Shown here piece after piece: positions 10,758 through 45,145 of a stretch of DNA of 53,775 nucleotides (positions are counted from its first letter, which is position 1; every line of letters starts with the position of its first letter). Made by a program: the position numbers and the translations under genes. Where the stretch lies: NCBI GenBank assembly GCA_049999805.1, contig JBNGIO010006293.1:214166-267940 (forward strand), read 5' to 3'. The stretch comes from Folioceros fuciformis. Lineage: Eukaryota. A model generated the notes under the pieces. It saw only the letters and a program-made list of their open reading frames with translations. It was not told the DNA's origin and did not search any database.

Positions 10758-13415
10758 ATGGCGTCCTCCATAGCTCAAGTGAGTGGCGTCAGGTGTGCAA
10801 GCTCGATAGCCTCGCAGTCGACTGCCTCCTCCAGTAGCAACAAGGGGGAGGCATGCCGGGGAATGGCGAATTTTGCTGGCCTCAAGAGCACCACCGGGTT
10901 GCCCCTCGCTTCGTCTCTGGAGAGCATGTCATTGAAGAGGAGGGTGTTGAAGTGTCTGAAGGCAGGAAGGGCGAGCCAGAGAGCGGCTGTGGTCTGTATG
11001 GCAGCTGAGGGTATGGTTTCAGGCTTGGTCTCTATCGTCTGTGCGAGAACGTGGTGCGAAGCGTCTGCGGTTGGATGCGGCTGCCTCTGACCTTTGTTGT
11101 CTTGTTTGTTCAGATAAGCGAGTGGTTCCTTTATCTGACTACCGCAACATAGGTATCATGGCTCACATAGATGCTGGAAAGACCACGACGACAGAGAGGA
11201 TTTTGTTCTACACGGGTAGGAACTACAAGATTGGGGAGGTCCATGAGGGCACTGCCACAATGGACTGGATGGAGCAAGAGCAGGAGAGGGGAATCACTAT
11301 TACTTCTGCTGCCACGACGGCTAAGTGGAACAACCACCGTATCAACATTATCGATACACCAGGGCATGTGGATTTCACTCTTGAAGTTGAGCGAGCTCTG
11401 AGAGTCCTTGATGGAGCTATCTGTCTTTTTGATAGTGTGGCTGGCGTTGAGCCGCAGTCTGAGACCGTGTGGCGTCAGGCGGATAAATATGGCGTTCCTC
11501 GAATCTGCTTTGTGAACAAGATGGACCGACTGGGAGCCAACTTCTTCAGAACCAGGGACATGATCGTGAGCAACCTTGGTGCTGTTCCCTTGGTGTTGCA
11601 GCTTCCTATCGGTGCCGAGGATACTTTCTCTGGAGTAGTGGATCTTGTGACGATGAAAGCCATTGTTTGGAGCGGAGAGGAGCTGGGGGCGAAGTTCGAG
11701 GTGGTTGATATCCCTGAGAACTTGCAGGATCTTGCTGCAGACTACAGGGCTAAGCTGATCGAGACTATCGTTGAGCAGGATGATGCTGCCATGGAATTGT
11801 ACCTAGAGGGAGTGGAGCCATCCCTGGAACAAATTGTGCAGCTCATCAGGAAGGGGACCATCGCCTCTGCCTTCGTACCTGTCCTTTGTGGATCCGCCTT
11901 CAAGAACAAGGGTGTCCAACCTCTGCTGGATGCAGTGGTTTCATACTTGCCGTCACCTTTGGATGTCCCTCCAATTAAGGGATGCGACGTGGATGATCCT
12001 TCTGTTGACGTAGTAAGACTGCCTAGCGACGCTGAACCTTTTTCAGGGCTGGCATTCAAGATTATGAATGATTCGTTTGTTGGTTCCCTTACATTTGTAC
12101 GTGTGTATTCGGGAACGATATCCGCTGGAACCTATGTCGTCAATGCCAACAAAAACAAGAAGGAGAGAGTTGGGAGGTTACTGGAGATGCATGCTAACAG
12201 TCGGGAGGATGTAAAAGTCGCTAGAACAGGAGACATTATTGCCCTTGCTGGTCTGAAGGATACCATCACAGGAGAGACTCTGTGTGACCCAGACAAACAG
12301 GTGATTTTGGAGAGGATGGACTTCCCAGACCCTGTCATAAAGGTTGCCATCGAGCCCAAGACGAAGGCAGATGTTGACAAAATGTCTGCGGGTTTGATCA
12401 AGCTGGCTCAAGAGGATCCCTCCTTCCATTTCTCCAGGGATGAAGAGACTAACCAGACAGTCATTGAGGGCATGGGAGAGCTCCATCTGGAGATCATTGT
12501 GGACAGGCTGAAGAGAGAGTTCAAGGTAAGTTTCAGCACCTTCTGTGTCCTCGTACCACAGAGGACGATCAATACTCAAGATCTGACTTTATTGCTGATT
12601 TTTTGTTGCAGGTGGAGGCCAACGTTGGGGCTCCCCAGGTAAATTACAGGGAGAGTATTGGAAAGCAAGTGGAGGTGAAGTACGTTCACAAAAAGCAGTC
12701 AGGTGGTCAGGGGCAGTTTGCTGAGGTGGTCATCCGATTTGAGCCTCTTGAACCAGGATCTGGGTACGAGTTCAAGAGTGAAATCAAGGGTGGAACAGTG
12801 CCCAAGGAGTATGTTCCTGGTGTGGTGAAGGGATTGGAAGATATGATGAGCAATGGTGTGCTTGCCGGGTATCCTGTGGTGGATGTCCGAGCTGTGCTGG
12901 TGGACGGTTCCTACCACGAGGTCGACTCAAGTGTGTTGGCCTTCCAGCTTGCTGCTCGTGGAGCTTTCAGAGAGGGCGTTTCAAAAGCAAACCCAAGGCT
13001 GTTGGAGCCTGTGATGAAGGTGGAGGTGGTGACCCCGGAAGATAACATGGGTGACGTGATCGGTGATCTCAACTCCAGGCGTGGTCAGATCAACAGCTGC
13101 GGAGACAAGCCCGGTGGCATGAAGGTTTGTTTGTTTGTTTTGTTCTCCTTGGCCCAAACTTTCTGGAGAAATCCAGTCCAGGTCTGGTAACAGTCCTGAT
13201 TTACTGGAAGCTGGATTCTTACTTGCATATTGCTGATTTTCCAGGTGGTTGATGCTTTGGTGCCACTATCGGAGATGTTTCAGTATGTGAGCAATCTCAG
13301 GGGCATGACAAAGGGCCGCGCTTCGTACACAATGCAGCTTGCGCAGTTCGAAGTGGTTCCTCAGCATATTCAGAACCAGATCACTGCCAATGCCAAGACC
13401 GCCTCAGTCGCTTAA
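10758..13415 (+). CDS. EF-G: plastid translation elongation factor G
   Basis: Exons 10758-11010, 11114-12525, 12612-13124, 13245-13415. Ser/Ala-rich transit peptide, then [25 protein letters not shown] and NKMD GTPase motifs and the EF-G domain IV/V sequence. Confidence 0.96.
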
Positions 13416-18510: not shown

Positions 18511-21395
18511 CTACACAGGCCGGAAGCCATGTCTCAGGGCAGCTTCCCACGTCAAGTCTATCCGGCTGACGTCAATGGCTCCCACTTCGTGATGGTCCCA
18601 GCCCTCCAAGACGTGCACAAGGCCACCAGCATGACACGCATGGGCTACTCCTCGTGGCATTGTCATCTGTCCAGGATACAGGCCGAACACTTTGTCATCA
18701 TGCTGCTACAAGGCAGAGAGACATGGGCGTTTGAGACGTGGTCACTAGGCCCAGAAAGTCGTTACCTCACAGCTTCGAATGCCTTTCATATCCTTCGGTA
18801 ACCGCATGCCAGCTAGCTTGCCGTATGTACAGTCCTCCCGGACCTCGGCAATGGGGGGCACCACGAATTGATGGAAATGTGTGCCGCTGGGAGCCCAACT
18901 TTGGTCTACTGAGCTTGCCCACTTGCCCATGACCCAATGCTGGACGATTTGGGAAGGAGGTCGTCAGGACATGTGGGCTGGCGCACGGACGTAAGGGACG
19001 AACTTGAGGCAAGCGGACATACCTTGCAAGATTTTCCATCTTGGTACTTAGTTGCCTGGATCAGGAGGTGTCGGTGTTCCGGTGGTGCTTCACTCTTGAT
19101 GGCTTCGAAACGATCTTTTGAAGTGGTTAACATCTGCAAGGTGGAGGGGAGCTCGTCAGATAGGATGCGTAATGACACGGGCTACGTCACATGGACACAG
19201 CGAGGGCATAGCGCATACCAGGACTCGCACTCCACGCCCGCAAAGGTACAACCCAATTGCACGTCCAAGCTTAGAGGTAGCTCCTGTCAGGAATATCTCC
19301 TTCACATCCTTGGGGATCTTATCTATCATCACACCTGCTGTAAGAGTGTTCCCATGAACCACTCGGATTCCAAGATTGGGATACTTCTGGACGAAGAGAG
19401 TTCCGCCACCGTTCAGGCCCTCGTTCTGTTAGAGATTATTAGTCAGTACACAAAACAGAAACGGACAAGGCATAAGCAGGAGCTTGAAAAGACGATGTCA
19501 GAGACGCCATGCCTTGTTCAGAGCACCCAAGCTGATCACTTTCGCTCCCTTCTTCTCAGCTCTCAGAATAGCACGCTCTATGAGGCTGTTGATCCTTCGT
19601 TTCTCGAAAGGCAAGAAGTACTGCGAAGTTCAGACACGCAGAGTTAAGGGGCTTCAAAATTGGGGACGAACTTTCTGCGAGAAAACTAATCGACTCATGA
19701 CGTCACTGAAGCCCTTCACGACGCTCACCTGAAAACCAAATCTAGGGATAACCCACGTCTGCAACCGTAGTTTGCCGAGGGTGCGTTTGTCACCCACAAA
19801 TGGCTGGCCGAAGATCCATAGTAACGCCATGACGGGAACCGTTAGCGGCCACAACGGCCAGAGGTACCACTTTGCTGCATAGGGATGTGCAGCAAAAGAG
19901 GGGATGCCAAAGGGAACGTGGAAAGTGGACAGAAGCTCAGTCCCATGCGCGAGAAAGATGAAATCAGGATTGTCTGGTCGACCTGCGAGAGGGGAAACAC
20001 ATATCACTACTTAGCAAACCAATTCAACCATCCACTCGAGATCGTGTCACAAGTTTCCTGATACGGAGAAAGTTATCAGTCAAAAGTGCAAATCCGAAAA
20101 ATGAAGATACCTTTCCTCACTTCTGCATGAAGACTGTCTGAAGATTTATCGACAGTGCCTCCAAGATAGTCGTACAGGGGCATGAAAAGGCAGAAATTCG
20201 TGTGAACTTGCGAATGATGCAGGGAGTGGAATCTGCGAAGGAATCGGCAATTCAGAAAGCAAGCTTGCGAATTTCATGACAGACAGTTCAAGCCCATGTC
20301 CTTGCGACGCAGAGACACCAAAGGGCACAGGAGAAGGACTCACGATGGGGTGTACACAAGGTACTTGAGTGGTGGGAAGGCTCGGAATAACCAGGTTGGC
20401 ATGAATTCAAAGTTGCAGTGCCCTACCGTGTTCATGAAGTCGAACCAAAGCCAGTAGAAGTAAAACATGCCCATGAAAGCATTCCCAAGAATCCAGGTCC
20501 CAAGCATAGGTATGGCAAAGATTGCCGTGTACATGAGGTGTTCTGCAAAGGGGTGCACCGAACCTGCAGGCACAGGATATTGCGACAAAGACTGGAATTC
20601 ATCAGAAAAGCTACACCGAATCCGACGTAGGACCGCATTTCTACATCTGAAGCCATACATACCTGTGATCGGCTCTGTGATGAACGATGCATGATGATGC
20701 GAATGATAGCGTGTGTAGAGGTAGTGGTGATGCAGAGCCCGATGTCCCCAATAGTACACATACTCTGTAGGCCCAATGTGTAGGAGAAGCATGATGATGA
20801 AACCTTTCTGACTCCAGAAAGGCACGTTGGTGAATCCGGGGAGAACAGCACGAACAATTGTTGCCACGAGTACGTGCAACAAAATATAATCCTCCCTGCC
20901 AGTACAAGGACGCTTCTGTTAGTTCGCATAACAGCCAGTTCCATCAAGGACAGCCTGCTGTCCAGCAAATTGCTATGTCGAATGATAAAAGGAGTAATAA
21001 ATGCCGCCTGAATTATACCAGTTGCTCTCACGGTCTACTTGGTCAAAATTGATGCCTTTGGTCTGAATCTGGTACTTGTCCGCAAAATAGTGCCACCTCG
21101 ACAGAGTCATCCACATTTGCCCGTGCAGATACCTCAATGCTGCTACGAGCAACATGTGCAGACAGAAATTGTCTGCGTCATGCCCTCCCAAAAAATTTGC
21201 ATGCACCGCCTTGGCTGCGAACGGGAGATATAGAAGATACTGCATCAAAGAATTGAAATCAGCTCAGCACTTCCTGTGCACCACAAAATCTGCGCACTCA
21301 GCCCAGTTGCCTCAAAGACGAACATCCAAACTTGCCTTCAGGCTGCCGAGCTTCTGCCAGGGCCAGTCGTACAGAAGGCCTGGCTTCATCGCCAT
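18511..21395 (-). CDS. CER1/3: ECERIFERUM CER1/CER3-family (fatty acid hydroxylase + WAX2 C-terminal domain) cuticular alkane enzyme
   Basis: Multi-exon gene: [13 protein letters not shown]..., [71 protein letters not shown], ending [12 protein letters not shown]. Confidence 0.92.
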
Positions 21396-23449
21396 TCCGA
21401 CAGACACTAACAGACACGGCCCTCCGACGCTTTTCTGGTCACAATCTCGTGCAATTCTACTGTCATTCCTCAGCAGCCGAACATGTTGCCGGCATCCACT
21501 AGGGCAGCAGAGGCAATGCGGATGCCTTAAACTGTCAGACAGTGAGATCACGTTGCTGCACTCTACCGACACTTGGAAGGCGCCACACTGAGCCTGCGTT
21601 TTGCAGCAGAGCTACAGAATTTGAAGTGCGGTTAACCTCAGGTTTCCTGCGAACCGGATAGGAAACCAGTCGCCGTTCTGCGACCACGCGGTGACCCTGG
21701 AGTCGTGAAGACACAGCTCCCAGGCATTGACGGATTTTTCTGGCCGCCTTATAACCATTGGCCAATAGGGATGTTCCATTTCTCAACATATCACATTTCG
21801 TATTGGCCTTTCCTGGAGAGAGGCTGGAAGATACCGGATACGAGTCAACCTTTTCAGCTCACAGCATAGAAAAACGACCACCCACCGCAGCAGTCATTTT
21901 TGATCGAACTGAAGCACCAAACGTGTGTTGAAAAAGGAAACCAACTCGCCCGCCACTGAACGCATGACGTCTCTGTAGGCTTTCAGCATCGTTTCAGGGA
22001 CAAGAAGACTTGAAATGAAGAGCCTGTCTGAGATGGCCCAGATATGTCTCTAGATACTTCCTCTCCGGAAAGCACTTCAAAGCAGTGAAGCCGATGAACT
22101 CCTCAAGAGCCAGAGAGATTAATTGGAGGCTCGGATGGAGGCCTCTGGAGATTGATCCATCCGGAGGCAGATGGTGCAATCAGATCTGGAAGCTTCCATC
22201 AAAGCTCCTCTGCAGCTAGAAAGGTTGGTTGGAAGGCATCAGCAGGTGGTGCAACCTGATCCGGAGGAGAGCCAAGGAAGGGCAATAGCTTTTGATTCCG
22301 GACGACATGCCGAGGAGGGGAGCCGAAGGTGCTTAGACCTAGAGTGTCCAGAGCCTGGATAGATACATGCACGAGATGCTACCAGACTCCAGAATGCGCA
22401 ATGTGAGGTTGACTCGATACAATACTGCAGACAATCGTCCATCACTTTCTCTTCTCGCACTTCAATAACTCCTCTTTCAATGCTGTGTGTCAGTTTGCCG
22501 AGAAAACCAGGTGAAGCTGGTGTTCTCCTCCCGTGGCCACAATATTGTTTTAACTTCCCTGCAAACACGGAATCGCTCAGGTCCTAGAAATGTAGATGCT
22601 TTCATGGGTTTACCATCTCTCTATGCCTGTACTGAGTACAGGTTTCTGGCCCTACATCCTCCATGCAGCTGGTACACCGTGTGGCGGAATCCTGCAGCGG
22701 CCACGGCTCGTGAATTCATGTTCTGGTTAGGGTTTCAGCTCCGGCCTAATCCAGCACCCTGGCATCGTTGTGAGAACCTACGGTTTCCATAAGCTTCCGA
22801 CGCGGATCCCGAGCAAGAGCACCCCGGAATGAGAAGCCCTACATACCAGCAAAGAACGACGGAAGGAGCAAATGTGCCCTGATCGGCGAGCATACACAAT
22901 ACATACAGTAATAGCTTTACTGGGGTAGGTGTACGTACAGATGCAACGGGCAGATCCCGAAGGCGGGCGTCGGCTGTCCGTGAGGAGGCTCTGACAGGCC
23001 TGCAACGTGCAGAAGCCAGGTACCCACGCAATCACAGGCTACAGGCTCTGACCTGACCTGACCTGACCAGCTTCGAAAGCTGCTTCTAGCAACAGCGAGC
23101 AGGGCACAGGTGTGCGTGGCCGACATCGCGCCTTTGGAGGCCGAGCCCTGCCTTTTACCCTTGGCTGCCTTGCTTCGCTGTTCTCGATTCCCGCGCCTGA
23201 GCAGTTTGATATCATATCCGATTCCTGTCAGCGGTTGTTTGCGGAGAGTAGTGAGACGGGGCCTACCTTCACCTGGACACCGGAAACACAGCAGCCCGGC
23301 CATCGACATCCACATCCACATCATCCATCCTTACATCCGTAACCATATTGGTACCGTCACAGGTGGGATTCACTACCTCATATTTCTGATAGCTCCAAAA
23401 CATCGGATAGCATATAAGAACTCATGATCGATTAGTCTGCATTTTCTGT

Positions 23450-23758
23450 GTGTCCCTCATTCGCTCTGTAAGGCAGCAATCCAGATATGACCAAATCCCG
23501 TATTCTTCCCCTCTCCCCAGGATAAAACTTTTGAGGACGAAAGATGATACCGCAGGCATTTGCAACATGGCCAACAGCACTGCTCTTCTGAAGTTCTACA
23601 ATGACAACAAGGATGCCAGAGGGTTCTGGTTCAGTAGGAGATGGCTCAAATTCCCTGGAGCATGTCGAAAGCCTGTCCACGACGGAGACACCATCCTCTT
23701 CGAAATGGGAGATGATCCATTACCAGCCGTTGATCCAGTGGCTCTCAGTGCACTGTGA
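23450..23758 (+). pseudogene. possible B3 DNA-binding domain fragment
   Basis: GFWFSRRWLKF...VHDGDTILFE resembles the B3 C-terminal pattern (xxW..F.....L..GD.hxF). No clear ATG or gene structure. Confidence 0.3.
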
Positions 23759-24752
23759 ACTTGAAAGGCCAGGTAGATGGTCTACAATCATGGTCATAAA
23801 ACTGAGGAGCAGAATGACAGAGAGGGACGAGTTTTTTGAACCGCTTGCACATATCCGGCTACAGTGCAGGCTTCGCAAAGGTACTGAACAGGTGAGGTGA
23901 GTATCAGCAGACAATGATTCTTTTGAGCCAAAAACACAGCAGAAGAGGGCAATGACTGGCTTTCCTTGGTGAGCCAGAAGTCGTCTCATCACACATCAAA
24001 GCACACTCTCCTCCCTTTCAACTTGTGCTGTGATTCATGAGAACTTCCAACCACTCACTGCATGTCCTGCCATCGTCTGTGATCCGTCATTCTAGAAGGC
24101 GGAGATGGTCCATAAGCGTTCTTCACCAGGGATCTGATGCCGCCGAGGCACCCCCTAGTCCACAGCAATAAGTAATCAGATAATTTCTTGAGCGTATCTT
24201 CGGGAGGAAACCAAGCCGACTGCTGGAAATGACACCGCAAGCTGCGTGCCAGCAACCGGGAGGCCGGAATCGTTAAAAATGATGACGGGGAAAAACAATT
24301 CTACGGCCGGAAAGGCTGGGCCGGCAATTCATCCCGGATGATTGCATCTTTGTACCACACTGCACATGCCACATTCAAAGCCCTTGCTCATCCTTCCCAG
24401 ATTAGCCGCACCACATTGAATGACTGCCGAGTGCATTCCCGGGCGCCGTTGCACGAAATCGATTCCTGAATCAAACAATTTGCGCTCCAAGCGTCCGAAC
24501 CAAACCAAACTATACGTAACACAGTAGTTAAACAGCGCGAGGCGTGGTCCTTACAGCAATACAATCCGTTGTTGCGCGGTGGGCCTCTTCACACTTTTTT
24601 CCCACACCGCCGATGATGGCTGGAAAGCCCGGAGCCTCGCGACTTGCACGGAGCAGCGGGACGGAGTTCCTGCTGTGGCACAGCACTTTGTTGGAACAGT
24701 CGGGCTAATTGAAAATTATTTAAATTCGAAATCTCTTTCTTTTGAAAGGGGA

Positions 24753-24826
24753 GCTCCCGTAGCTCAGTTGGCTAGAGCATTGGTCTTATGAGCCAAAGGT
24801 CGCGGGTTCGACCCCCGCCGGGAGCA
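24753..24826 (+). tRNA. tRNA-Ile (anticodon UAU), intronless
   Basis: Acceptor GCTCCCG/CGGGAGC plus discriminator A; D-arm AGCTCAGTTGGCTAGAGC; anticodon stem TTGGT/GCCAA with loop CT-TAT-GA; T-loop GGTTCGA; TTTT shortly downstream. Confidence 0.95.
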
Positions 24827-25036
24827 CATCCCGCATAGCCATTTTCGCCACTTGCTAAATCATTGCAGTCGAACATATTTTAGTGTACTATCCCCTCGTG
24901 AATGCCGCTAGTTGGATCCCCCCTGGACTTGTCCCATGCCCATTATGAAACGTCCGTTGAAAATTCTGGTTGCATAAAGGCTTAAAAGCTGTCCCAAAAG
25001 CAAGACCAGGGACAGAAGACAGTCGTGGCAAAAGCA

Positions 25037-25102
25037 GGCCGGGCTCTTAATGAGCCTCTAAAATTGGGGCTGGTTTTACGGCCCCGCATTAAGAGCCCGG
25101 CC
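25037..25102. repeat. perfect 16-bp inverted repeat (hairpin)
   Basis: ggccgggctcttaatg (25037-25052) and cattaagagcccggcc (25087-25102), with a 34-nt spacer that is partly self-complementary. Confidence 0.85.
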
Positions 25103-25438
25103 CCCACAGCCCGCCTCTTCCGCAGCATTCGCCAGTTACGCCACAAGGTAAGCGATATCCTGGAAATATGTACGGGAGATTATGTTTGTACCGATACGTA
25201 TTTCCCGTGCCTGTGCTCAGTTTCTAAAAATAGGCGACCCTCATCCATTCCGTCCCAGACGACACCAAGATGGTTCTATCTCGGATTCTTGGAACTGGGG
25301 TTCCTTACATCACTCAGAAGAAATGGCCTATAGAAGAAACGCGCGTGAGTGAAAGCATAGTAACATGACAAGAGTCGTTGACGTTCTGTTACAGCCTGGG
25401 CGCAGATGTGGCAGCGTTACGGACTTCTGTTATGGAGG

Positions 25439-26704
25439 TTATGGTAAAGGGGGCTGGAAGTTGGGGTAAACGGGCTGAACGGGGCGGGTGAAAGGTAAAA
25501 ACGTGGTACACTGGGACGTCGTGCAGGCTCGCCCTTCTGCCTGCCTTGTCCTCCTGCTGCTCCGCCTCGGCTGCCGTGGCCGCTGCTGTTCCTGCTCCTG
25601 TTTTGGAACCTTTCGGATGCATTGGCGGACGAAGCATCTAGATCTCTTGCGTCGCCCTGCCGCCCTCGGCGCGTTCTGATTGTGATTGTGCCCTGGCTGA
25701 ATTCGCGAATTTGGGAGCGGAGCTGTGGATGCGATCTCTGCTTGGAGGAAGCGGAATGCGAGAATGTGAAGAATTTGCAGAATTTCGGGACATGCAGTGT
25801 TGTTTTCTGGCTGGGGGGNNNNNNNNNNNNNNNNNNNNNNNNNNNNNNNNNNNNNNNNNNNNNNNNNNNNNNNNNNNNNNNNNNNNNNNNNNNNNNNNNN
25901 NNNNNNNNNNNNNNNNNNTTGGAGTGTGTGTCTGATCCGGCCGCCAGGTAGGTGAGGGACGACGGGAGGAGCTCGGTGAGGGAATTGTCCGGCTCCAAGA
26001 TGTGGCTGGTTGGAGGTTTGGAATGGCGTTTTCTGCTTCCGAGGAGCTGGCTGTGCCGGCCAGCTCTGGTGATGTGAGCGGCGGGGAAGGATTGGCTCGA
26101 AGAAATTCTGGCGGAGATCCGCTACAAGGCGTGCCTTCGTGACTCGCAGGTTTTTCTGGTTCGAGCTTGGTTTGGTGGAGGGGACGTACGCGGAGCTGCC
26201 GTCGTTACGTCTCTGGTGCTGTATTGGAAAGCTCTGCTGCTTGGCTGCTTCCGCGCTACAGCCGCGGTGTGTCTTTCTCGCTGATTGCAAGGGAGAGCTT
26301 CCTGAAGGTCGAGTTGCGCTCTGTCTGTAGAGCTTGATCCGGAAGCGGCGCTGGAACAATTCGGTTTCCGTCGCACGCTGGGTCTCCGTGTCGGCGGCTG
26401 GCGGGATTGTCCTTGATTGCCCTTTCTTGGGATCGAGGTTGGGATCGGAGAGGCTGTGCGAGCTACAGGAGCTGCCCGTATTGAGGCTTCTCAGGTGCTG
26501 GGAGAAAGAACATGTAGCTTCGAGAACCGGAGCTGTGGAGGCAGTAGCTGGCTTCGCGCGCAAGTATCTGGACGTTGAAGTGTAGAATGATTGGCTGGGA
26601 TGACTGCAGGAGCGTGCATTGCTGAACAGGAAATGCTCAGAAGCCAGTGCCAAGCATTGGAATGGGTTTCGGCAGGTCTGAACCGGCGACATCGTGAGTA
26701 CCAT
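25439..26704 (-). CDS. orphan S/R/P/Q-rich ORF interrupted by an assembly gap
   Basis: About 260 stop-free codons from the ATG at 26704 to the N-gap (25819-25918). It is not a shadow of a plus-strand ORF. No recognisable domain, and the frame after the gap is unknown. Confidence 0.35.
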   Translation of the reverse strand: MVLTMSPVQTCRNPFQCLALASEHFLFSNARSCSHPSQSFYTSTSRYLRAKPATASTAPVLEATCSFSQHLRSLNTGSSCSSHSLSDPNLDPKKGQSRTIPPAADTETQRATETELFQRRFRIKLYRQSATRPSGSSPLQSARKTHRGCSAEAAKQQSFPIQHQRRNDGSSAYVPSTKPSSNQKNLRVTKARLVADLRQNFFEPILPRRSHHQSWPAQPAPRKQKTPFQTSNQPHLGAGQFPHRAPPVVPHLPGGRIRHTLQXXXXXXXXXXXXXXXXXXXXXXXXXXXXXXXXXXPQPENNTACPEILQILHILAFRFLQAEIASTAPLPNSRIQPGHNHNQNAPRAAGRRKRSRCFVRQCIRKVPKQEQEQQRPRQPRRSSRRTRQAEGRACTTSQCTTFLPFTRPVQPVYPNFQPPLP

Positions 26705-26979
26705 CGCACATTCCTCTATGGTTTTTGCCAGCAATTTTACTGACCCTGCAATGCGACTTGTGTGCGTGCGGTTTTTTCGTGGAATGGCGGCCTTGTGTGG
26801 GAGCGTTTGAGTTCCTGCTAATTTTGGACATGGCTGCCGTTTCCTTCCCGCTCGAATGGTGCGTATTATCGCCTGGCGACTCAACTTGTACTTCGTGTCG
26901 TCTTGGCAGAATCATTGATAGGATTTTGGAGGCAACATGTTGTCACAGAAATCAAAGGAGCGTGGACATCTCCAGCCTT

Positions 26980-29900
26980 ATGGCGGAAGAGGACCTGGCG
27001 GACGCCCGTAAATCCTCGGTAGACCTGGGGAGCGATCGTTTGACTCGCCTGTTCCAGACTCTGCTGAAGGAGAAGCTTGCGTGCTTCCCGGTGAGCGCTT
27101 GAACGGAGGAAACGACTTCTTGCTCGCTTGTTGAATGTCTGCCAATTTGACGAACCTTGTTTTCGTGCAGCAGGATGAGTTGCCAGCTTCGGACTCTGTG
27201 AAAGCGAACGAAGGGGAAACTTGGAAGTCAGATGGAAAGGGCTTGTCGGATGAAGTGAGTAAAACGTTTGATTGTTCAAGCTGGCTCTCCGTTTCGTCGG
27301 AATGATCTGTAACTGGTTGCGGAAAGAGCATTCTGAGGCAGTGGTGGTGGCGTGACTTATGTGGTAGGAACGCTGTCAAGATGCGGAAACAAGCAGGAAG
27401 GCCCTCAGAGTGGTTGACATATTCTCTGCAGCGTTAGCTCGTCAAGCCGCCGATACAGACTACAGTATCCTTCAATGCTGCGTCTGGCGTCCTCTTGTGG
27501 ACCTCCTCAGACGTCCTCAAGCTATCACTGTATGGCAAGATCTGGTGCTATTGTTCCCCAAGCTGGTACGAGTTGAGGCGTGTACATGGTGAAACTTCTG
27601 TCGCTTCTACTTTTCATCATGGCCTGACGTCTTTTGGTCCTTGTTGCAGCTCGCAAGGCACGCAGGCGACTTACTTGGAAGGAACGCCGATGGCCATATT
27701 CTTTGTGAAATGTTTGGTTGGCTGTTGTTCATAGCAGCTTTGGACGACAGAGATGCTGTGAGGCAGAAGGCTCGGTCCATATTGCGCCTCTTGTTAAAGG
27801 TGGGAAGACCTGGGAAGTTGTTCAATGCTGCAGGTTTCTCGTAATTCTCCTCCTAATGGTGTTTGTTGGCTGAATGCAGAGCGCTTTCACTGAGCATGGA
27901 GGACTTGTGCAAATGAAGGTCATATCCACCATGGCCCTCATGGATATCCTGGAATTCCGTGTGACAACCCAGCAAGCAGACACAAATAGTTGCGACAGCC
28001 ATTCTAGTGCCCACTCTTACAGAAGGTCCAAGTCAGTGTGCACAACTCAGAGCCGAGATTCAAGCTCTTTCGAGTGGAGTGACAGCGAGGCAGAGCTTGA
28101 GCAAAGAACCTTCAACAGGTCCGAGACCTTTGGTAATTTCAGGGATTCGTCGGACTCCGCAGATTGGTCTCCTAGAGCCAAAGTTGACTCTCCCTCTAGA
28201 CAGTTCAAACAGCGGCGTAGAGACAAGGTGGGCAGAAGATCAGGGGACTTTGTGAAGCTTCCATGGAGCGAGGAGCTTGATGTTCTGAAGGGGCCCCTGC
28301 CTCCTAGTGGCAGCTTGCCTTATCTCCGACGGAAATCCAGCGCCTTATCCAGTTTCTGGACTGCGGACTCATTGGAGAGCATTCTGAGCTGTCTCTACCG
28401 TTTGGAGACATTAGAGGCCAACGACGTCTCTGGTTATCATGGGATGGTGGCACTGGATTTGGACGTATTTGGTTGGAAGGAAGCGCTACGGGACTTAGTG
28501 GTAACCCTACAGCACGTTTTCCAAGCTTGGAGTGAGCATCATAAGATGGTAAGATGTGTCTGCACACTCTCAGCATATCGATGACTGATAGTTTTGAGCA
28601 GCTCATTTCTGCAGGATTCATCTCTGGTGTCCCATTTTCTGGTGATCGCCAGCGGCACCCCTGACAATGTTGTCGTGAAATCCCGCTATCTGCAGATTGC
28701 AAGACAGTCCGTAGATAAGATTCTGTTGGCGGAGACCTGTCTAGCTGTATCCAGAGCATGTTTCCATGTCCCAGATCTTAGCATACAATGGCTTCTTCGA
28801 CTCAGCCGACGGTACAAGGAGGACCACGCCGAACTGCACCAGCCAGAAGCTGCGCAATGCCTCGTGGCATGTGCAAGCATTATCATCCAGCACATGATGC
28901 GGTCAAGTGAATGTTCTCTGTGGGGGACGCCACACCTGCGGACGCTACAAAAGATTTGCCCCGACATGGTAATCATCTTTCCGAAGCTTCTGGGTGGTCG
29001 TCTAGAAAGGTTGCCTTCGGTGCCAAGACCCATGTCACAGGAAGGCGGTGCTGCTGGCTTAGGTTCTTTGTCACAGACAGCTGATGTGGACTACGGTCAG
29101 AGCGTTTATTATTCCCTTCTTGGTTTACCACCAATCAGTAACAGCAGGCCTGATGAGCAGAGGCCTCACCTATTGGACTCAGTCTTAGAGGACGACTCCC
29201 TAGATGCGAAAGTTAGAGACAATCTGGCGGATGCACTGATTCAAATCAGCAAAGAGCGGATTAGCGTCGACATGAGTGATAAAGGGTTTGTGGTCACGAA
29301 GGGTGATCTACTGAGCAGGTTCAAGTCAAGGTCGTTGCCAGCAATCAATGGAGGCCGAGCCCATGTGATTGGATCAACTGAAATTAACTTGGATAGAGCT
29401 CTAGAGCATTTGCACGAAGCGAGTGAACTTTTCAGGGAAGCTGGTTTCTTGGAGACGGCAGCTGAGCTGATTGAGCTTACAATACCGGTCTACCAAAATC
29501 GGAAGGCGTACAAAGAGTTGATTAAGTGCCACGCAAAACTGGCTGCCGTATGCAGCTCAGTGTGCTCCCAGGCCGAGGTGTGGGGTGAACCAACGACAGA
29601 TGCAGCCTACTATCGTGTTGGTTTCTTTGGTGATAAATTCGGACCAAGACTGTGCGGAAAGGAATATATCTATCGAGAGGATAGGTCAGTTTGAAAGTCG
29701 CTGCTTCAGAGTTGACCGCCAGCAGTAAGATTGGTAATTAACGTACGATGCACTTTCGTTTGTTTCTTGGCAGGCACACACATCTGTCCGATGTGACGGA
29801 CAAGATAGGGAACTTCTACGAGAGACAATTGGGTGGAACGCAGTTCCTACGTATCATATCTGATCCAAGTCAGATTCAACCTAGTTCCCTCATTCCAGGC

Positions 29901-30756
29901 ATCGGTTATCTTCAGGTTGTTCAAGGAAAATCTCCAGCTGTTGCCTGTCCTACTCTTCATCTTCATCCAACGCAAAATTTTTGACACCAACGCTTGCCCT
30001 ACTTCTGCTCTCCAGATTATCCCAGTTGAGCCCGTTTTCAGTACAGATAAGGCAAATCAAGGGACAAGAACATTACTGAGAACTTTCTGTTTTTCAACTC
30101 GCCTAACCAGAAGTACTGCATATGGCTCATCCTCCAGATGTAGCTGCGGGTTCAAGGGAGCTTTGCAGAAAAGGAGGAAAACTGTCTTGACAGTTCAAGG
30201 CTGTTTCCCAAACCTCGTGTGCAGGCTTGAAGTGGTGCAGACGGATCCAGTTGTCATATCGCTGGCCGAGCACATTGTCGACTCCGTCGAGCTGTGGACA
30301 CGGAAGCTCAGAGGTGCTATGGAAACAGCTGCAATGCAACTACACAGAGTCCTCCAGGGCATCCTCAGCGCTGTTTACACTCACCATATCTTGACAGTTA
30401 TTTCTATCTGCTTCAAGTCTCCAGGGTCTACGGGCCGTCATTTCACGTCCGAAGATAGGAGGACCAGCTTGGGTGACGACATGGGTAATGAGGAAGCAAG
30501 ATCTCCTCCGTCTTCTGGTCCTTTGCCTTGGGTACCCTGCTCTACATGTCTAAGTGCATTTGATGCTCTTCAACGTGACAGCGCTAGCAAGGAGAGGTTG
30601 AAGACAGCTGTTACCCTTTTCATGGCCACAATCAGGAAAGCACTCAAGGCACTTTCTGAACATCCAGACCGAAGAGACTGGAGGGTCCAAGCCTCTCTCT
30701 CCGACAAGGCGCATCAACTACTTAAGGAGCTCTCCGTCATAATCCAGAAGCCCTGA
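26980..30756 (+). CDS. divergent DOCK-family (SPIKE1-like) protein with DHR-2 domain
   Basis: Spliced exons follow SPK1 order: ADTDYSILQC, DAVRQKA, HVPDLSIQWLLRL, EAAQCLVACA, ELIELTIPVYQNRKAY..L.KCH, DAAYYRVGFFGDKFG..KEYIYRED, KRRKTVLTVQGCFPNLVCRL, LHRVLQG. The start is uncertain (ATG 26980 or 26830). Confidence 0.82.
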
Positions 30757-31204
30757 CTTCACCACTGTACGGATCGCATGAATGTGGCGGTCCCTTATTT
30801 GCATCGTGTATCCTTATGTACTAACAATGTATACTACAGATTCGTTATCTCTGCCATAGGTTCACCCTACAGACATCTTTTTTACCTGGAATATGAAACT
30901 TGGCCCCACTAAGTGTAACTGGTCCGTCGGTTTATAAAGTGCAAACTCTCAATGAAACGAAATGGCGACAGCGTTGTTAGACTAACTGATGTGATAGCTG
31001 TGTTAACCTTTCCGTACCGTCAAAAATTTATGAAATCAATATCTGTACAAAACATTTGAAGGAGCCAATGGACGATAGTCTGTGCAATTGCACATCTTAC
31101 CAAGGCCCAGGTTCACATCACACATCGAATATTTCCCACGCTGAAGCTTGAGGAACTTCCGCCAGATGATCAGAATCTGAAATAATTCTTGCCAAAGAAT
31201 CACA

Positions 31205-31233
31205 CCCCCCCCCACCCCCCCCCCCCCCCCCCC
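31205..31233. repeat. poly-C tract (poly-G on minus strand)
   Basis: Near-uninterrupted C run between the convergent DOCK-like and SAC9 3' ends. Confidence 0.85.
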
Positions 31234-31518
31234 GCCAGCAAACCGAATTGGCGCAGCCAAAACTGCAAACAATATTGCTTAGCTTGTCCACAATACACCA
31301 GCTTCCTGCACATGAACTTGCTAGGTAAGCCCCCGGATCCGTTCAATTCATTAAGCGTTAATGGCGAAGACAACGGGATAGGCAAATTGACGACTAACTT
31401 ACCATTAAGCAACACAAAGGGCGACTTGACACGACGACATGACGTGTGAGGTCTCTCTTATCCCGTCTGGTCGGGACGCGAGTCACATGAAGTCCTGTTG
31501 CAGGATTTCGACCACCTC

Positions 31519-40847: not shown

Positions 40848-41608
40848 GCTTTTGTGTCATCTCTAGTCGTTTCGACAGCTGAGGTCCTGACGGCCTGCCT
40901 CACTCCTGGTTTGGATAGGGACGCAGTAACTTGTTGTTGCGGCCTGTGTGAGGCTGCGGCTGGCAGAGAGGCGGAGTCCCGAGTGATATCTTCTATCAGT
41001 TAGCTTTATGGCTTAGATTTGATCAGCTGGAGGAAGGGAAGAGGATCATCTGCGTCTCAAGAGACTCTTCTTCTGGCGTCCGATACGGACTGTGGAGAGT
41101 TCAGGATTCTTGTGTAGTTCGGGAGGATCATTCTTGTTGTAGCAAGCGTGTGTTTTTGTACTTAAGTTGTCGTGTAACCTCGGTAAAGTTTCGCATTTAT
41201 CGACGATCTCATCCGGATGTGCTCTTCTGGAGAACTTTAGAACGCGGTCCTTTTCATGCTGACTGGTCGCGCACGTAGCGCACCTCGTCATAGAAATCTT
41301 GGGGAGATCGAAGAACGCTCGCAAAGCGGTATGCAAGCTGATCCTTTCTGCGAACCTTCTTGCGATGAAGTTTACCCTGTCATCTCATTTAAGACGGAGT
41401 AAATTGGATGCTTGGGCACTGGAGGAAGAGAAAGCTTGGGAGCCCGGTGAGAGATGCGTGCTACGAACCTTGGTAAGCAGAGTATGCGAGTGTTCTTCTC
41501 CGTTAGCGGACGACAACATGGACAGCGTGATTGGCTTAACCAGCCCAACTGGCGCTCCGGATCTGGGTCTCGTTGGGTTCAGAGCTTCAGGCTGTAGATG
41601 CGGAAGGC

Positions 41609-44600
41609 ATGAGTGTTGCGCTTCAGCTGAAGAGTGGGCGACAGGGCCTCCTGTGGAGACAGAGGAATTTTGGTGGGATGTCGGACATCAAATTCATGGC
41701 TGAAGGACACCTATGGGGGGTGACGGATGAATCTGTGAGCCAGCTATGTCAGCAGGGGCAGCTTGCTGAAGCTGTGGAGGCTCTGGGAGTTCTGGTGCAG
41801 ACAAATTGTGGTGTTGCTCAGTCTGTATTTCGTGCAGTTATCAAAAAGTGTGAGATTCAGAGGAATCTGGTTGTGGGTCGCCTTGTCCATGCTCTTGTAG
41901 TGATGAAGGGGTATGAGTCGGACACGTTCTTGTGCAACCACATCATACGAATGTATGCTTCTCATGCCAGGTTGGCTGAAACGATGGATGTGATCTCTGT
42001 GGCTGCCAAGCCGGATGCCTTCATGTGGTCTTCCGTGATCTCTGCCCATGTTAACCACGGACAGGCTGAGCGGGCAGTACAGCTGTATCAGCAGATGCGA
42101 AGGTCAGGTGTGAAGCTGGATGGCCATGTGTTTGTGGCAGCCCTTCAGGCCTGTGCCAGGGGAGCAGACTTGAGTAGCGGGCAGCAGGTGCATGCTGATG
42201 TGTTGGCCAGTGGCTTGGAACCTAGTTTGTTCGTCTCTAATGCCCTGGTGGACATGTATGCAAAGTGTGGCAGCTTGGAGGATGCTCAGAGGGTGTTTGA
42301 TGGACTCGGTCGAAAAGACGTGGTGACCTGGACCTCGTTGATAGCAGGGTATGCGCAGCATGGCATGGGCCTCGAAGCTCTCTGTGTGTTCTGGGCTATG
42401 CAAGATGAAGGGATGGCTGCGCCGGATTCTGCCACGTTTGTGTGCCTCTTGCAGGCATGTGCAAGTTTGGGCACACCCGCTTTGGAGCACGTCAAGCAGC
42501 TTCATCAGAAAATTAGGGAACGAGGCCTGCAAGCCGATGTGTTCGTAGCCAGCAGTTTGGTGAACATGTACACGAAATGTGGCAGACTGGAGGATGCTCG
42601 AAGTGTGTTTGATGGACTTGGCCACAAAAATGTTGTCACTTGGAATGCTTTGATAGCAGGGTACTCCCAGCAAGGCATGGGCCAGGAAGCCCTTCATCTT
42701 CACAATGCTATGCAACAAGAAGGCGCTGTGGTACCTGATTCTGTGACTTTTCTGTGCCTTCTGCAGGCGTGTGCAAGTGTGGGCACCTCGGCTTTGGGCA
42801 AGGGGAAGCAGCTTCATTCGCAAATCAGAGAACGGGGGCTTGAGGCCGGTGTGCGTATGGCCAGTAGTCTGATAAACATGTACGCAAAGTGCGGCAGCCT
42901 GGAGGATGCTCGGGACGTATTTGATGGAGTTGGTCAAAAAAATGTGGTGGTATGGAATGCCATGATGGGTGGATATTCCCAGCAGGGCATGGGCCAGGAA
43001 GCCCTTGCTCTTTACTGGGTTATGCAAGAAGAAGGTGTTGTGGCGCCTGATGCTGTGACATTCGTGGGCCTACTCCAGGCGTGTGCGATGGAGGGCTCCC
43101 CAGCTTTGGAAACCGGGAAGCAGCTTCATGCACGGATTGTAGACGGAGGGTTCGAAGCCGACGTTTTCCTAGCTAACAGTTTGGTAAACATGTACTTGAG
43201 GTGTGGCAGCTTGGAAGATGCTCAGAGTGTGTTTAACGGACTTGGTCGAAAAAATGTGGTAACCTGGAATGCCATGATAGCAGGATACTCCCACCAGGGA
43301 ATGGGTCAGGAGTCCCTTAACCTTCACAGTGCTATGCAGGAAGATGGCAAGACCGCTCCTGATTCTGTCACGTTTCTATGCCTCCTGCAGGCGTGTGCAA
43401 GCGTGGGGACAGCAGCTTTGGAGAAGGGGAAGCAGCTCCATTCACAGATAAGAAACGGAGGACTTATGACCGATGTGTGTTTAGCCAACACCCTGGTGCA
43501 CATGTACGCAAAGTGTGGCAGCCTAGAAGACGCTCAAGGCATATTTGACGGACTCAGTCAGAAGTGTGTGGGAACGTGGGCCTCCCTGATAGCAGGATAT
43601 GCCCGGCAGGGCTTGGGCCAGGAAGCCCTTAGCCTTCACTCTTCTATGCAACAAGAAGGCATCGCAGCATCGGATTCTGCGACAATTCTATCCCTTCTAC
43701 GGGCATGTGCAAGTGTGGGCACTTCTGCTTTGGGGACTGGAAGGCAGCTTCATGCGCAAATCAGAGAACAAGGAGTGGGTACTGATGTCGTTTTAGCCAG
43801 CAGTTTGGTAAACATGTATGCGAAATGTGGCAGCCTAGAAGATGCTCAGAGCGTGTTCGACGGCCTTGGCGAAAAAAATGTGGTGACCTGGAGTGCCATG
43901 ATCGCTGGATATTCCCAGCAGGGCAGGGGCCGGGAAGCCCTTCGGCTCTATGAAGCTATGCAAGAAGAGGGTATCGTTCCACCTAATTCTGTGACCTATG
44001 TTTGCCTCCTGCAGGCATGTACAAGTTTGGGCACCATGGGATTGGAGATGGGAAAGCAGCTCCACACACAATCTACAGAACAAGGACTTGAAGCTGATGT
44101 GTTTCTAGCCAGCAGTTTGGTAACCATGTATGCAAAGTGCGGCACCCTAGAGGATGCTCGGGCCGTCTTTGATGGGCTTCCCCTCAAAGATGTAGGGACG
44201 TGGAATGCCATGATTGCAGGGTATTCCCAGCAGGGGATGGGGCAGGAGGCTCTCCGTCTTTACAGTGTTATGCAAAACGAGGGCATTGTGGCACCCGATT
44301 CTCTGACGTTTGTGTGCCTCGTGCAGGCATGTGCAAATGTCGCAGCCCTACACCTGGGCAGACGGCTACATGCACAGATCGAGGAACAAGGGCTTCACAC
44401 TGACGTGCTCGTAGCTGGCAGTTTGATCAACATGTATGGAAAGTCCGGTAGCATGGTTGACGCACAACAGGTGTTTGAGGCATTGCCAGGAAGGGATGAT
44501 GTTGCCTGCAATGCCCTGATTGCAGGCTACACACGTCACGGAGACAGTGAAATGGTCTTCGACTTGTTCGAGAGAATGAGAAGGGATGGCATACAGCCAA

Positions 44601-45145
44601 CTGCCATGACATTCCTCAGTCTTCTAACAGTATGCAATCACGTGGGTCTTGTCAGCAAGGGGCGGGAGTACTTCCAGGCTATGAGTGGAGAACATGACAT
44701 CGACCCCAGTGTGGAGCACTACACCTGCATGGTGGACCTCCTGGGTCGTGCAGGCCACTTGGACGAGGCACTAGCCTTCATCAAAACCATCCCTGTCCTG
44801 CCCAGTGCTGCAATTTGGCATGCCCTGCTAGGTGCTTGTCAGAAGTGGAACAGCGTAGAGATAGGACACCATGCTTTCCATCAAGCAGTGAAGCTGGACC
44901 AGAAGGATGCCTCCGCATATGTGTTGATGTCAAACATATACACCGGCGCCCAGATGTGGGAGCAGGCGCAGGAGATGCAGGCAAGGAGGAAAAGAATTGG
45001 CGCATGGAAGCAGCCAGGGCAGAGCTGGTGGACAGACCTCGACGGACTAGTGCATAGTTTCTTCGTTGGAGATGCCAGGCATCCCGAAAACGCAGTGTAC
45101 TCCAACAACTTGCTTCCAGAAGGAAGGACTTGGCTTATTATCTGA
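41609..45145 (+). CDS. PLS-class pentatricopeptide repeat protein, E1-E2-E+ (truncated WW-type DYW), putative organellar RNA editing factor
   Basis: About 28 PPR motifs in P-L-S triplets (312-bp period), terminal P2-L2-S2 (VEHYTCMVDLLGRAG), E1 (AIWHALLGAC), E2 (SAYVLMSNIY), then KQPGQSWWTD...HSFFVGD..HP. No HxE/CxxC/DYW follows. Start uncertain. Confidence 0.93.
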   Translation: MSVALQLKSGRQGLLWRQRNFGGMSDIKFMAEGHLWGVTDESVSQLCQQGQLAEAVEALGVLVQTNCGVAQSVFRAVIKKCEIQRNLVVGRLVHALVVMKGYESDTFLCNHIIRMYASHARLAETMDVISVAAKPDAFMWSSVISAHVNHGQAERAVQLYQQMRRSGVKLDGHVFVAALQACARGADLSSGQQVHADVLASGLEPSLFVSNALVDMYAKCGSLEDAQRVFDGLGRKDVVTWTSLIAGYAQHGMGLEALCVFWAMQDEGMAAPDSATFVCLLQACASLGTPALEHVKQLHQKIRERGLQADVFVASSLVNMYTKCGRLEDARSVFDGLGHKNVVTWNALIAGYSQQGMGQEALHLHNAMQQEGAVVPDSVTFLCLLQACASVGTSALGKGKQLHSQIRERGLEAGVRMASSLINMYAKCGSLEDARDVFDGVGQKNVVVWNAMMGGYSQQGMGQEALALYWVMQEEGVVAPDAVTFVGLLQACAMEGSPALETGKQLHARIVDGGFEADVFLANSLVNMYLRCGSLEDAQSVFNGLGRKNVVTWNAMIAGYSHQGMGQESLNLHSAMQEDGKTAPDSVTFLCLLQACASVGTAALEKGKQLHSQIRNGGLMTDVCLANTLVHMYAKCGSLEDAQGIFDGLSQKCVGTWASLIAGYARQGLGQEALSLHSSMQQEGIAASDSATILSLLRACASVGTSALGTGRQLHAQIREQGVGTDVVLASSLVNMYAKCGSLEDAQSVFDGLGEKNVVTWSAMIAGYSQQGRGREALRLYEAMQEEGIVPPNSVTYVCLLQACTSLGTMGLEMGKQLHTQSTEQGLEADVFLASSLVTMYAKCGTLEDARAVFDGLPLKDVGTWNAMIAGYSQQGMGQEALRLYSVMQNEGIVAPDSLTFVCLVQACANVAALHLGRRLHAQIEEQGLHTDVLVAGSLINMYGKSGSMVDAQQVFEALPGRDDVACNALIAGYTRHGDSEMVFDLFERMRRDGIQPTAMTFLSLLTVCNHVGLVSKGREYFQAMSGEHDIDPSVEHYTCMVDLLGRAGHLDEALAFIKTIPVLPSAAIWHALLGACQKWNSVEIGHHAFHQAVKLDQKDASAYVLMSNIYTGAQMWEQAQEMQARRKRIGAWKQPGQSWWTDLDGLVHSFFVGDARHPENAVYSNNLLPEGRTWLII

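Follow-up and report, generated by a model that had tools for sequence, protein, structure and literature searches.

The gene at 26980–30756 on the plus strand of the analysed DNA (the window, the whole stretch of 53,775 nucleotides from Folioceros fuciformis) raises the question whether an SPK1-type protein that looks stripped of its membrane domain and its catalytic residues still activates ROP GTPases, only binds them, or is simply decaying. To our knowledge, SPK1 is commonly regarded as the sole DOCK of plants. The best explanation, which we favour with modest confidence, is that the gene is a transcribed, correctly spliced, fast-evolving and retained non-catalytic SPK1 paralogue of a land plant, whose function we infer. 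Its protein corresponds to the last third of SPK1-type proteins, with a partial helical arm and the DHR-2 domain, to which a short N-terminus of novel sequence and three insertions are added.

The exon structure was derived from contigs of the sequencing run X1, which is presumed to be RNA (a guess from the tool, the library type being unrecorded); two further runs, X2 and X3, contain next to none of the gene's words. Eight GT..AG joints in the X1 contigs link the exons across introns of 80–216 nt, and the seven coding introns supported by spliced contigs are all in frame. The preliminary description had left the 5' end to transcript reads, and these add a 5' exon (E0, 26265–26693, start undefined) that is supported by the joint 26693→26910 (GT..AG) and by depth in bins from 25563 on. 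In the coding frame this exon has a TGA at 26623 followed by an ATG at 26662, and it also contains ATGs at 26600 and 26633 in a different frame, which may restrict translation provided that the transcript start precedes both. Exon 1 (26910–27090, joints 26693→26910 and 27090→27171) holds the originally proposed ATG at 26980 and encodes model aa 1–37 without SPK1 homology; the product has 1027 aa from this ATG and 1062 aa when started at 26662. The X1 joints also define exon 2 (27171–27254, aa 38–65, without recognisable homology), exons 3 and 4 (27368–27565 and 27650–27799, aa 66–181), in which the SPK1-homologous helical region begins according to tblastn and phmmer, and exon 5 (27880–28548, aa 182–404), which matches no Pfam family. 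Exon 6 (28696–29684, aa 405–734) is fixed by the joint 28548→28696 and by a PF06920 match and encodes DHR-2 lobe A, exon 7 (29774–29915, aa 734–781) encodes the end of lobe A and the start of lobe B (X1 joints, tblastn to SPK1 1567–1630), and exon 8 (30016–30756, aa 782–1027 and the stop codon) encodes lobes B and C as judged from X1, AlphaFold and Foldseek. A single unspliced X1 contig (30013–31197) spans exon 8 and continues through the 3' UTR (30757–31197), where it ends at a poly-C tract. A nearer acceptor for exon 6 at 28615 was rejected because an X1 contig uses 28696, a difference of 27 in-frame codons, and so was a short intron excising the YTHH stretch of the sensor discussed below, as the sole frame-keeping GT..AG pair spans 45 nt and X1 is unspliced there. 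The earlier statement that the exons are open and correctly spliced thus holds for the joints and the reading frame, with the correction that exon 6 starts at 28696 and not at 28615. Whereas the two remaining frames contain 41 and 57 stops, the coding frame of 1027 codons has none, and together with seven coding introns each spliced in frame this argues against a transcribed but functionless partial SPK1 duplicate drifting to a pseudogene, an explanation that we regard as unlikely even though the upstream ATGs in the leader would fit it.

What the gene lacks is the larger part of SPK1. Collinearity with SPK1 as found by tblastn and phmmer is confined to residues ~1157–1771 and the C-terminal helices, with model residues 70–240 matching 1157–1324 of the SPK1-type protein P0003 (i-E 6.4e-11). 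The proposal that recognisable homology is limited to the C-terminal part was therefore correct, its start lying at ~1157 of the 1847 aa of P0003. Using four full-length SPK1-type proteins as tblastn queries, the first ~1150 residues remained unmatched across the 53.8-kb window, and no DOCK-C2 domain (PF14429) was found in any of the 134 ORFs that reach 70 aa in the segment 10960–38624; the controls P0003 (477–646, 108 bits) and P0005 (452–620, 100 bits) do carry it. It is very improbable that the gene model is merely incomplete and that exons further upstream or inside an assembly gap supply DHR-1. A gap of 100 N at 25819–25918 does lie in or near the first exon and the transcript start is undefined, but a C2 domain of ~170 aa is too big for 100 bases, the coding frame is closed by the TGA at 26623 before its first ATG, and there are no X1 joints upstream of 26693. 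Moreover, the depth is 0 across 24510–25562 (intergenic), and a tRNA-Ile gene (24753–24827) and minus-strand transcripts (21018–24421) are found further upstream. Both the TGA and the tblastn result in the window agree with the original observation that no DHR-1/C2 domain stands upstream. The neighbouring genes are CER1-like, SAC9 and PPR-E.

The DHR-2 domain, in contrast to the missing part, is still recognisable. Exon 6 matches PF06920 (DHR-2 lobe A) in Pfam with a score of 65.3 bits (cut-off 26, E 1e-17), and also DOCK6 (E 8.2e-10) and DOCK9 (E 2.3e-6), and phmmer aligns model residues 627–909 with SPK1 1477–1771 (i-E 5.2e-48). Lobes B and C score 16.9 and 12.5 bits (PF20422 and PF20421) against a gathering cut-off of 26. 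For exon 8 AlphaFold nevertheless predicts the fold of lobes B and C with a pLDDT of 80.5, the model being a prediction from a 39-row alignment, and its top 16 Foldseek matches are the DHR-2 domains of DOCK8, 7, 10, 9, 5 and 2 (E 1.9e-9 to 2e-5). On this basis the fold of all three lobes appears to be retained. Conservation is unevenly distributed within this fold: from 29 DHR-2 columns that are at least 85% conserved among 48 representatives, 21 are kept, among them all those of lobe A, and eight, which belong to lobes B and C, are lost, and besides the residues of the α10 sensor four conserved residues of lobe B are replaced. When exon 6 (lobe A) was modelled as a pair, the complex prediction reached 0.04 against a mark of 0.32, a value obtained with the alignment unused and the fold uncertain, which bears on dimerisation in neither direction.

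Three insertions interrupt this framework. In exon 5 a Ser-rich insertion of ~138 aa (aa 241–378, nt 28057–28470) stands in place of ~27 aa in SPK1, lobe A in exon 6 is interrupted by ~125–130 aa (exon residues ~101–225, nt 28996–29370), and the alignment places a further, low-confidence insertion in lobe C after α10 (exon 8 residues ~133–169, 30412–30522, plus strand), for which AlphaFold gives a pLDDT of ~49–52 at residues 141–170. The Ser-rich insertions that had been noticed at first sight are thus real, with Ser-rich stretches at model aa 211–260 and 321–350 and large insertions relative to SPK1, and they would probably act as regulated linkers.

The next change concerns helix α10 with its nucleotide sensor, which corresponds to LHRVLQGILSAVYTHHILTV at 30340–30399 on the plus strand (HMMER, MAFFT, AlphaFold). 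According to the portion of PMC10152721 available to us, catalysis resides in lobes B and C while lobe A makes the dimer, and the sensor Val is essential and invariant across all species. In HMMER, LHRVLQGILSAVYTHHILTV aligns without gaps to DOCK8 and DOCK7, and we compared it by MAFFT with 50 DOCK representatives, each with at least 380 residues past the lobe A match and taken from the 148 hits, among 150 listed, for which blastp returned a match; P0001 (see below) was excluded. The N-terminal half of α10 is preserved (L890, L894, Q895 and G896). Beyond it, Tyr902 (codon TAC at 30376–30378) takes the place of the catalytic Val that 47 of 50 representatives have, the next column, with Asn in 36 and His in 11 of them, holds Thr903, the Gly present in 50/50 is His905, and Cys913 replaces a Phe found in 48/50. 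The substitution of Tyr for the sensor Val and the loss of N and G, as first proposed, are thereby confirmed, and the combination of the invariant Val with N/H-x-G is absent. As V901 directly precedes Tyr902, a shift of the alignment by one residue would bring a Val onto the sensor, but Asn/His and Gly are lost even so. The prediction is in line with this, since the usual seven-residue sensor loop is reduced to a two-residue kink in a near-continuous helix, whereas α10 of the canonical control P0151, folded from the same sequence set, is broken by a loop of six residues. The Val has at least one natural exception, as the DOCK representative P0098 has a Glu at this position, which counts against the non-catalytic reading.

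Could the protein nevertheless be an atypical but active GEF, exchanging nucleotide on ROP through a re-shaped sensor formed by the shifted V901 or by Tyr902 and reaching membranes through a partner in place of DHR-1? Bulky Tyr902 might also occlude Mg2+, and V901 could take over sensing if displaced by one residue; both points count against the non-catalytic reading. Furthermore, lobes B and C of DOCK7 and DOCK8 alone suffice for GEF activity, as stated in the part of PMC10152721 consulted, and in our protein the fold is kept (AlphaFold, Foldseek) along with 21/29 conserved columns including L890, L894 and G896 of α10N. Still, we consider an active enzyme unlikely, because Gly (50/50) and Asn/His (47/50) are lost under any shift of the alignment, the predicted loop has two residues against six in the control, and four conserved residues of lobe B are gone too.

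In order to place the gene among its relatives we reconstructed a tree of the DHR-2 region, in which it falls within the green SPK1-type clade (10 rows, support 100/100) with a sister group of seven rows (support 94/93). A quick tree of 49 rows gives the same grouping with an SH-aLRT of 95, but the fork linking P0098 to the SPK1-type clade is weak and unsupported there (69). Together with the X1 joints, the clade support bears out the initial assignment as a spliced SPK1-type paralogue. The exact position is unsafe because of the long terminal branch, which at 1.91 changes per column is about three times as long as the median (0.58). Such a branch is what a decaying duplicate would also show, as are the lost catalytic residues and the large low-complexity insertions, and it would be in keeping with decay that a single relative, P0001, was found among 1.84 billion representatives. 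P0001, an ORF from a raw assembly, is 50% identical to exon 6 across 334 aligned positions, and a search with exon 6 for near relatives passed P0001 and P0151 out of 2577 candidates, whereas no candidate passed when longer proteins were sought with the exon 6 ORF (6061 candidates) or near relatives with exon 8 (692 candidates); among annotated moss proteins the homologue search found no close relative of the gene. However, P0001 keeps exon 6 open for 327 residues, stopping short of lobe C, with an identity of 63% in the helical segments against 34% in the insert, and no conserved column of lobe A is lost in our gene, both of which argue against decay. The open frame and this pattern in P0001 support the earlier idea of a retained paralogue, if indirectly.

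Returning to the retained, non-catalytic paralogue: as the catalytic fold is kept and the membrane domain and the catalytic residues are lost, the protein probably serves binding rather than activation. The DOCK mechanism for driving Mg2+ and nucleotide out of a ROP GTPase would not be open to it, nor would it reach membranes by itself, and a protein that can do neither would be left as a non-catalytic binder. It could then hold ROP without nucleotide exchange, or it could use lobe A, which is well preserved and forms the interface of DOCK dimers, to pair with canonical SPK1 and tune the activity of the latter. The roles first suggested, those of a catalytically dead protein, a scaffold or a dominant-negative dimer partner, are likewise hypotheses. 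A bolder version, which is possible but which we hold only tentatively, takes the gene as a conserved DOCK pseudo-GEF, i.e. an old, lineage-restricted SPK1 offshoot without membrane targeting or catalysis that modulates ROP as a partner; regulation would then work through heterodimers formed with SPK1 via lobe A, or through sequestration of ROP. If true, this would be the first natural catalytically dead DOCK in a family whose sensor Val has been called invariant in all species. A retained and expressed paralogue without DHR-1 or sensor would amount to a separation-of-function variant made by nature, showing which DOCK functions (dimerisation, GTPase docking, WAVE/ARP2/3-type effector scaffolding) need no catalysis, and ROP polarity signalling would gain a new type of regulator, negative or modulatory in action. 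As the basis is one genome and one partial relative, we regard this as a lead rather than a result.

A literature search returned no pseudoGEF paper on DOCK/DHR2 and, among the papers listed, nothing on truncated plant DOCKs; looking for SPK1-like or DOCK-like proteins linked to ROP brought up nothing related either. The generalisation that canonical SPK1-type proteins are as a rule the only DOCKs of plants proved too broad: it agrees with the single SPK1 each of Arabidopsis and Marchantia (PMC6322563; 10.1101/385682), but not with the six Spikes, SPK1–SPK6, of Physcomitrella patens (PMC6322563), as far as the excerpts at hand of these sources go. The moss Spikes show that a non-seed plant can have several DOCK paralogues, and in the same excerpts of PMC6322563 they were silenced as GEFs, the RNAi using just the initial 380 nt of coding sequence, with truncation or sensor loss not described. 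P0098 (2755 aa), which lies outside the SPK1-type clade, differs from the gene in having kept DOCK-C2, N-x-G and its full length. The human DOCK-C and DOCK-D DHR-2 domains (DOCK6/7/8 and DOCK9/10), of which structures with Cdc42 or Rac exist, are the best matches in the PDB by sequence and also by fold (TM 0.57–0.63) and share the α10N motif LxxxLQG, but their seven-residue α10 insert, which contains the essential Val (Val1951 in DOCK9), as described in the accessible part of PMC10152721, is not preserved in the gene. Compared with the plant DOCK-family ROP-GEF SPK1 itself, as represented by P0003, P0005 and P0151 (Closterium), the gene is without the first ~1150 residues including DOCK-C2/DHR-1, reads Y-T-H-H where SPK1 has V-N-x-G and carries three insertions of ~35–138 aa, while both have the three DHR-2 lobes, B and C of the gene being recognised by phmmer and by their predicted fold.

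The stretch LHRVLQGILSAVYTHHILTV, encoded at 30340-30399 (+), covers the nucleotide sensor of the DOCK-like protein. We searched 1.84 billion cluster representatives exhaustively with HMMER, taking exon 6 (28696-29684, lobe A) as query, and obtained 153 matches with E ≤ 1e-3. From the best 150, which were listed, the 50 extending at least 380 residues past their lobe A match, with the partial relative P0001 left out, were aligned with the predicted protein. The sensor valine of 47 of these 50 representatives is Tyr902 here (codon 30376-30378), the following Asn or His (36 and 11 of 50) is Thr903, the glycine (50/50) is His905 and a phenylalanine (48/50) is Cys913; the first half of alpha10 is retained (L890, L894, Q895 and G896). 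In a HMMER search against all PDB chains, exon 8 (30016-30756, lobes B and C) aligns gap-free to DOCK8 and DOCK7. Both results bear out the preliminary description, which had proposed that the Val is replaced by Tyr and that the N and G are gone. V901 stands directly N-terminal to Tyr902, and a one-residue deletion would shift it onto the sensor column, with the Asn/His and the Gly absent regardless. The three representatives without valine are P0067 and P0102, whose sequences appear garbled or truncated, and P0098, a DOCK homologue of 2755 aa that has both DOCK-C2 and DHR-2, carries Glu at the sensor but keeps the N-x-G. On its sequence, P0098 is another natural exception to a valine called 'invariant and essential' in PMC10152721.

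The structure of exon 8 (246 aa) was predicted with a 39-row alignment (pLDDT 80.5, pTM 0.73), and its best 16 Foldseek matches in the PDB are all DHR-2 domains of DOCK8, 7, 10, 9, 5 and 2 (E 1.9e-9 to 2e-5, TM 0.52-0.63). In this fold alpha10 is helical over 106-116, breaks for two residues (117-118) and is helical again from 119, including V120, Y121, T122, H123 and H124 (exon 8 numbering; block pLDDT 88-92). In the control, a prediction of the canonical Closterium protein P0151 from the same set of sequences (pLDDT 84.2), the helix at 436-449 is followed by six loop residues (450-455, ALQVNS, with Val453 as the sensor) and a second helix at 456-464, an arrangement that fits the seven-residue alpha10 insert of DOCKs described in PMC10152721. 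As only a two-residue break takes the place of this loop, the sensor loop itself is predicted to be gone, beyond the replacement of the valine. Across 48 representatives (the garbled P0067 and P0102 dropped) conservation reaches 85% or more in 29 columns; of these the DOCK-like protein retains 21 and has lost eight, none of them in lobe A. Four of the losses fall in lobe B: P810R, F811L and G815T belong to the TPFTxxGK stretch, P864L to LSPIE. The other four, V902Y, G905H, F913C and L914F, cluster around the lobe C sensor. According to PMC10152721, holding the GTPase and catalysis are the task of lobes B and C, and lobe A serves lobe B stabilisation and dimer formation. With most conserved columns kept and these eight lost, an active but atypical GEF seems rather unlikely.

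Contigs of the public sequencing run X1 (library type unrecorded, guessed to be RNA) contain 78% of the sampled words from 26900-30900. Mapped to 21000-31500 they give GT..AG joints at 26693/26910, 27090/27171, 27254/27368, 27565/27650, 27799/27880, 28548/28696, 29684/29774 and 29915/30016, and a single contig covers 30013-31197 without a splice. They also splice the adjoining minus-strand genes and leave 24510-25562 uncovered, as cDNA would. Provided that the guessed RNA type holds, we therefore take transcription and splicing of the gene as given. From ATG 26980 the coding sequence has 1027 codons and no stops, the other two frames having 41 and 57. Thus the exons described as open and correctly spliced do have an open frame and GT..AG joints, but the acceptor of exon 6 is 28696 instead of the nearer AG at 28615, which changes the product by 27 in-frame codons, and an additional 5' exon ending at 26693 had been missed. 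Within this exon, several upstream ATGs lie in 26587-26693 (+): an alternative in-frame ATG at 26662, with a TGA in the same frame ahead of it at 26623, would add 35 residues, and those at 26600 and 26633 are out of frame and open up to the exon end, so that once spliced their frame would overlap the main start.

A DOCK-C2 domain is found in the SPK1-type proteins P0003 (477-646, 108 bits) and P0005 (452-620, 100 bits). The first ~1150 residues of P0003, P0005 and the likewise SPK1-type P0006 and P0010 gave no credible tblastn match in the whole window (word size 2, E up to 10), and Pfam detected no DOCK-C2 among the 134 ORFs of 70 aa or longer in 10960-38624. Together with the in-frame stop 5' of the gene, this agrees with the suggested lack of an upstream DHR-1. 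A 100-N gap lies 5' of the gene (25819-25918); set against the stop and these searches, it leaves an incomplete gene model very improbable. A tRNA-Ile(TAT) gene (24753-24827, +, ARAGORN) separates the DOCK-like gene from minus-strand transcripts farther upstream (21018-24421, X1 contigs).

One of these, at 21992-24421 (-), is spliced with two alternative joints, 22557/22938 and 22837/22938 (CT..AC ends), and Pfam recognises no family in any of its ORFs that reach 70 aa. A CER1-like gene (-) matches PF12076 and PF04116 at 18748-20918, and its joint 21239-21336 (CT..GC ends) is a GC-AG intron on the minus strand. A long poly-C tract (31198-31246) closes the 3' UTR of the DOCK-like gene. No more than some 300 nt separates it from the end of the convergent SAC9 gene (-, final coding ORF from 31522), so the two genes may meet or overlap at their 3' ends. 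The window also holds an intronless PLS-type PPR protein of 1201 aa with an E motif (41540-45142, +), a type of protein typical of land-plant organellar RNA-editing factors, an EF-G-type elongation factor of about three exons (10960-13412, +), an inositol monophosphatase family ORF (4308-5024, -) and a homeodomain (KN/TALE-like) ORF continuing beyond the window end (52918-53775, -).

Pfam recognises DHR-2 lobe A with 65.3 bits, and lobes B and C score 16.9 and 12.5 bits (cut-off 26). Three collinear phmmer matches connect the protein with P0003 (1847 aa): residues 70-240 with 1157-1324 (i-E 6.4e-11), 379-494 with 1352-1462 (i-E 8.2e-13) and 627-909 with 1477-1771 (i-E 5.2e-48). Homology is thus confined to the C-terminal part of SPK1, beginning at P0003 1157, and the intervals between the matches are insertions, a Ser-rich one at 241-378 and a second within lobe A at 495-626; a third, low-confidence stretch follows alpha10. 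The C-terminal restriction and the presence of Ser-rich insertions had been anticipated. A carefully built 20-row tree places the protein inside a clade of ten SPK1-type proteins of the green lineage (support 100/100), sister to seven of them (94/93), and a quicker tree with 49 rows is in agreement. Because its end branch is so long (1.91 versus a median of 0.58), the placement outside the Closterium and angiosperm-type group may reflect long-branch attraction.

Among the exon 6 matches listed only P0001 (492 aa) reached E ≤ 1e-30. It forms a cluster of its own, comes from a Logan assembly contig of 14.5 kb and represents a read-through ORF of genomic DNA. Its residues 1-327 share 168/334 identities with exon 6 (E 4e-109), with 63% identity over exon residues 1-100 and 226-329 and 34% over the insert residues 101-225; past residue 327 it enters intron sequence, with exon 7 in a non-coding frame, and it ends before lobe C. 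As the exon is open at such divergence and conservation is focused in the helices, the comparison points to probable purifying selection acting on lobe A. Next to this, and with the losses in lobes B and C, a transcribed duplicate in decay has perhaps one chance in a handful.

The most economical reading, which we favour by a little over even chances, is a non-catalytic binder. The protein would retain a DOCK-like surface for a ROP GTPase, would have its dimerisation lobe well preserved, and would lack both the loop expelling Mg2+ and nucleotide and the C2 domain through which DOCKs are positioned on membranes. Such a protein could act as a mixed-dimer partner modulating canonical SPK1 or as a ROP-holding protein. 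At sequence level the case is clean, its basis being one genome plus a single partial relative, and the function proposed here is putative. The open-access literature searched yielded no account of a plant DOCK that is truncated or lacks its sensor, nor of a DOCK 'pseudoGEF'. SPK1 is given in PMC6322563 and 10.1101/385682 as one copy each in Arabidopsis and Marchantia and six in P. patens. Compared with these known systems, the DOCK-like gene descends from SPK1/DOCK and would work like it, whereas its protein departs from the GEF family in the two defining features tested, DHR-1 and the sensor.
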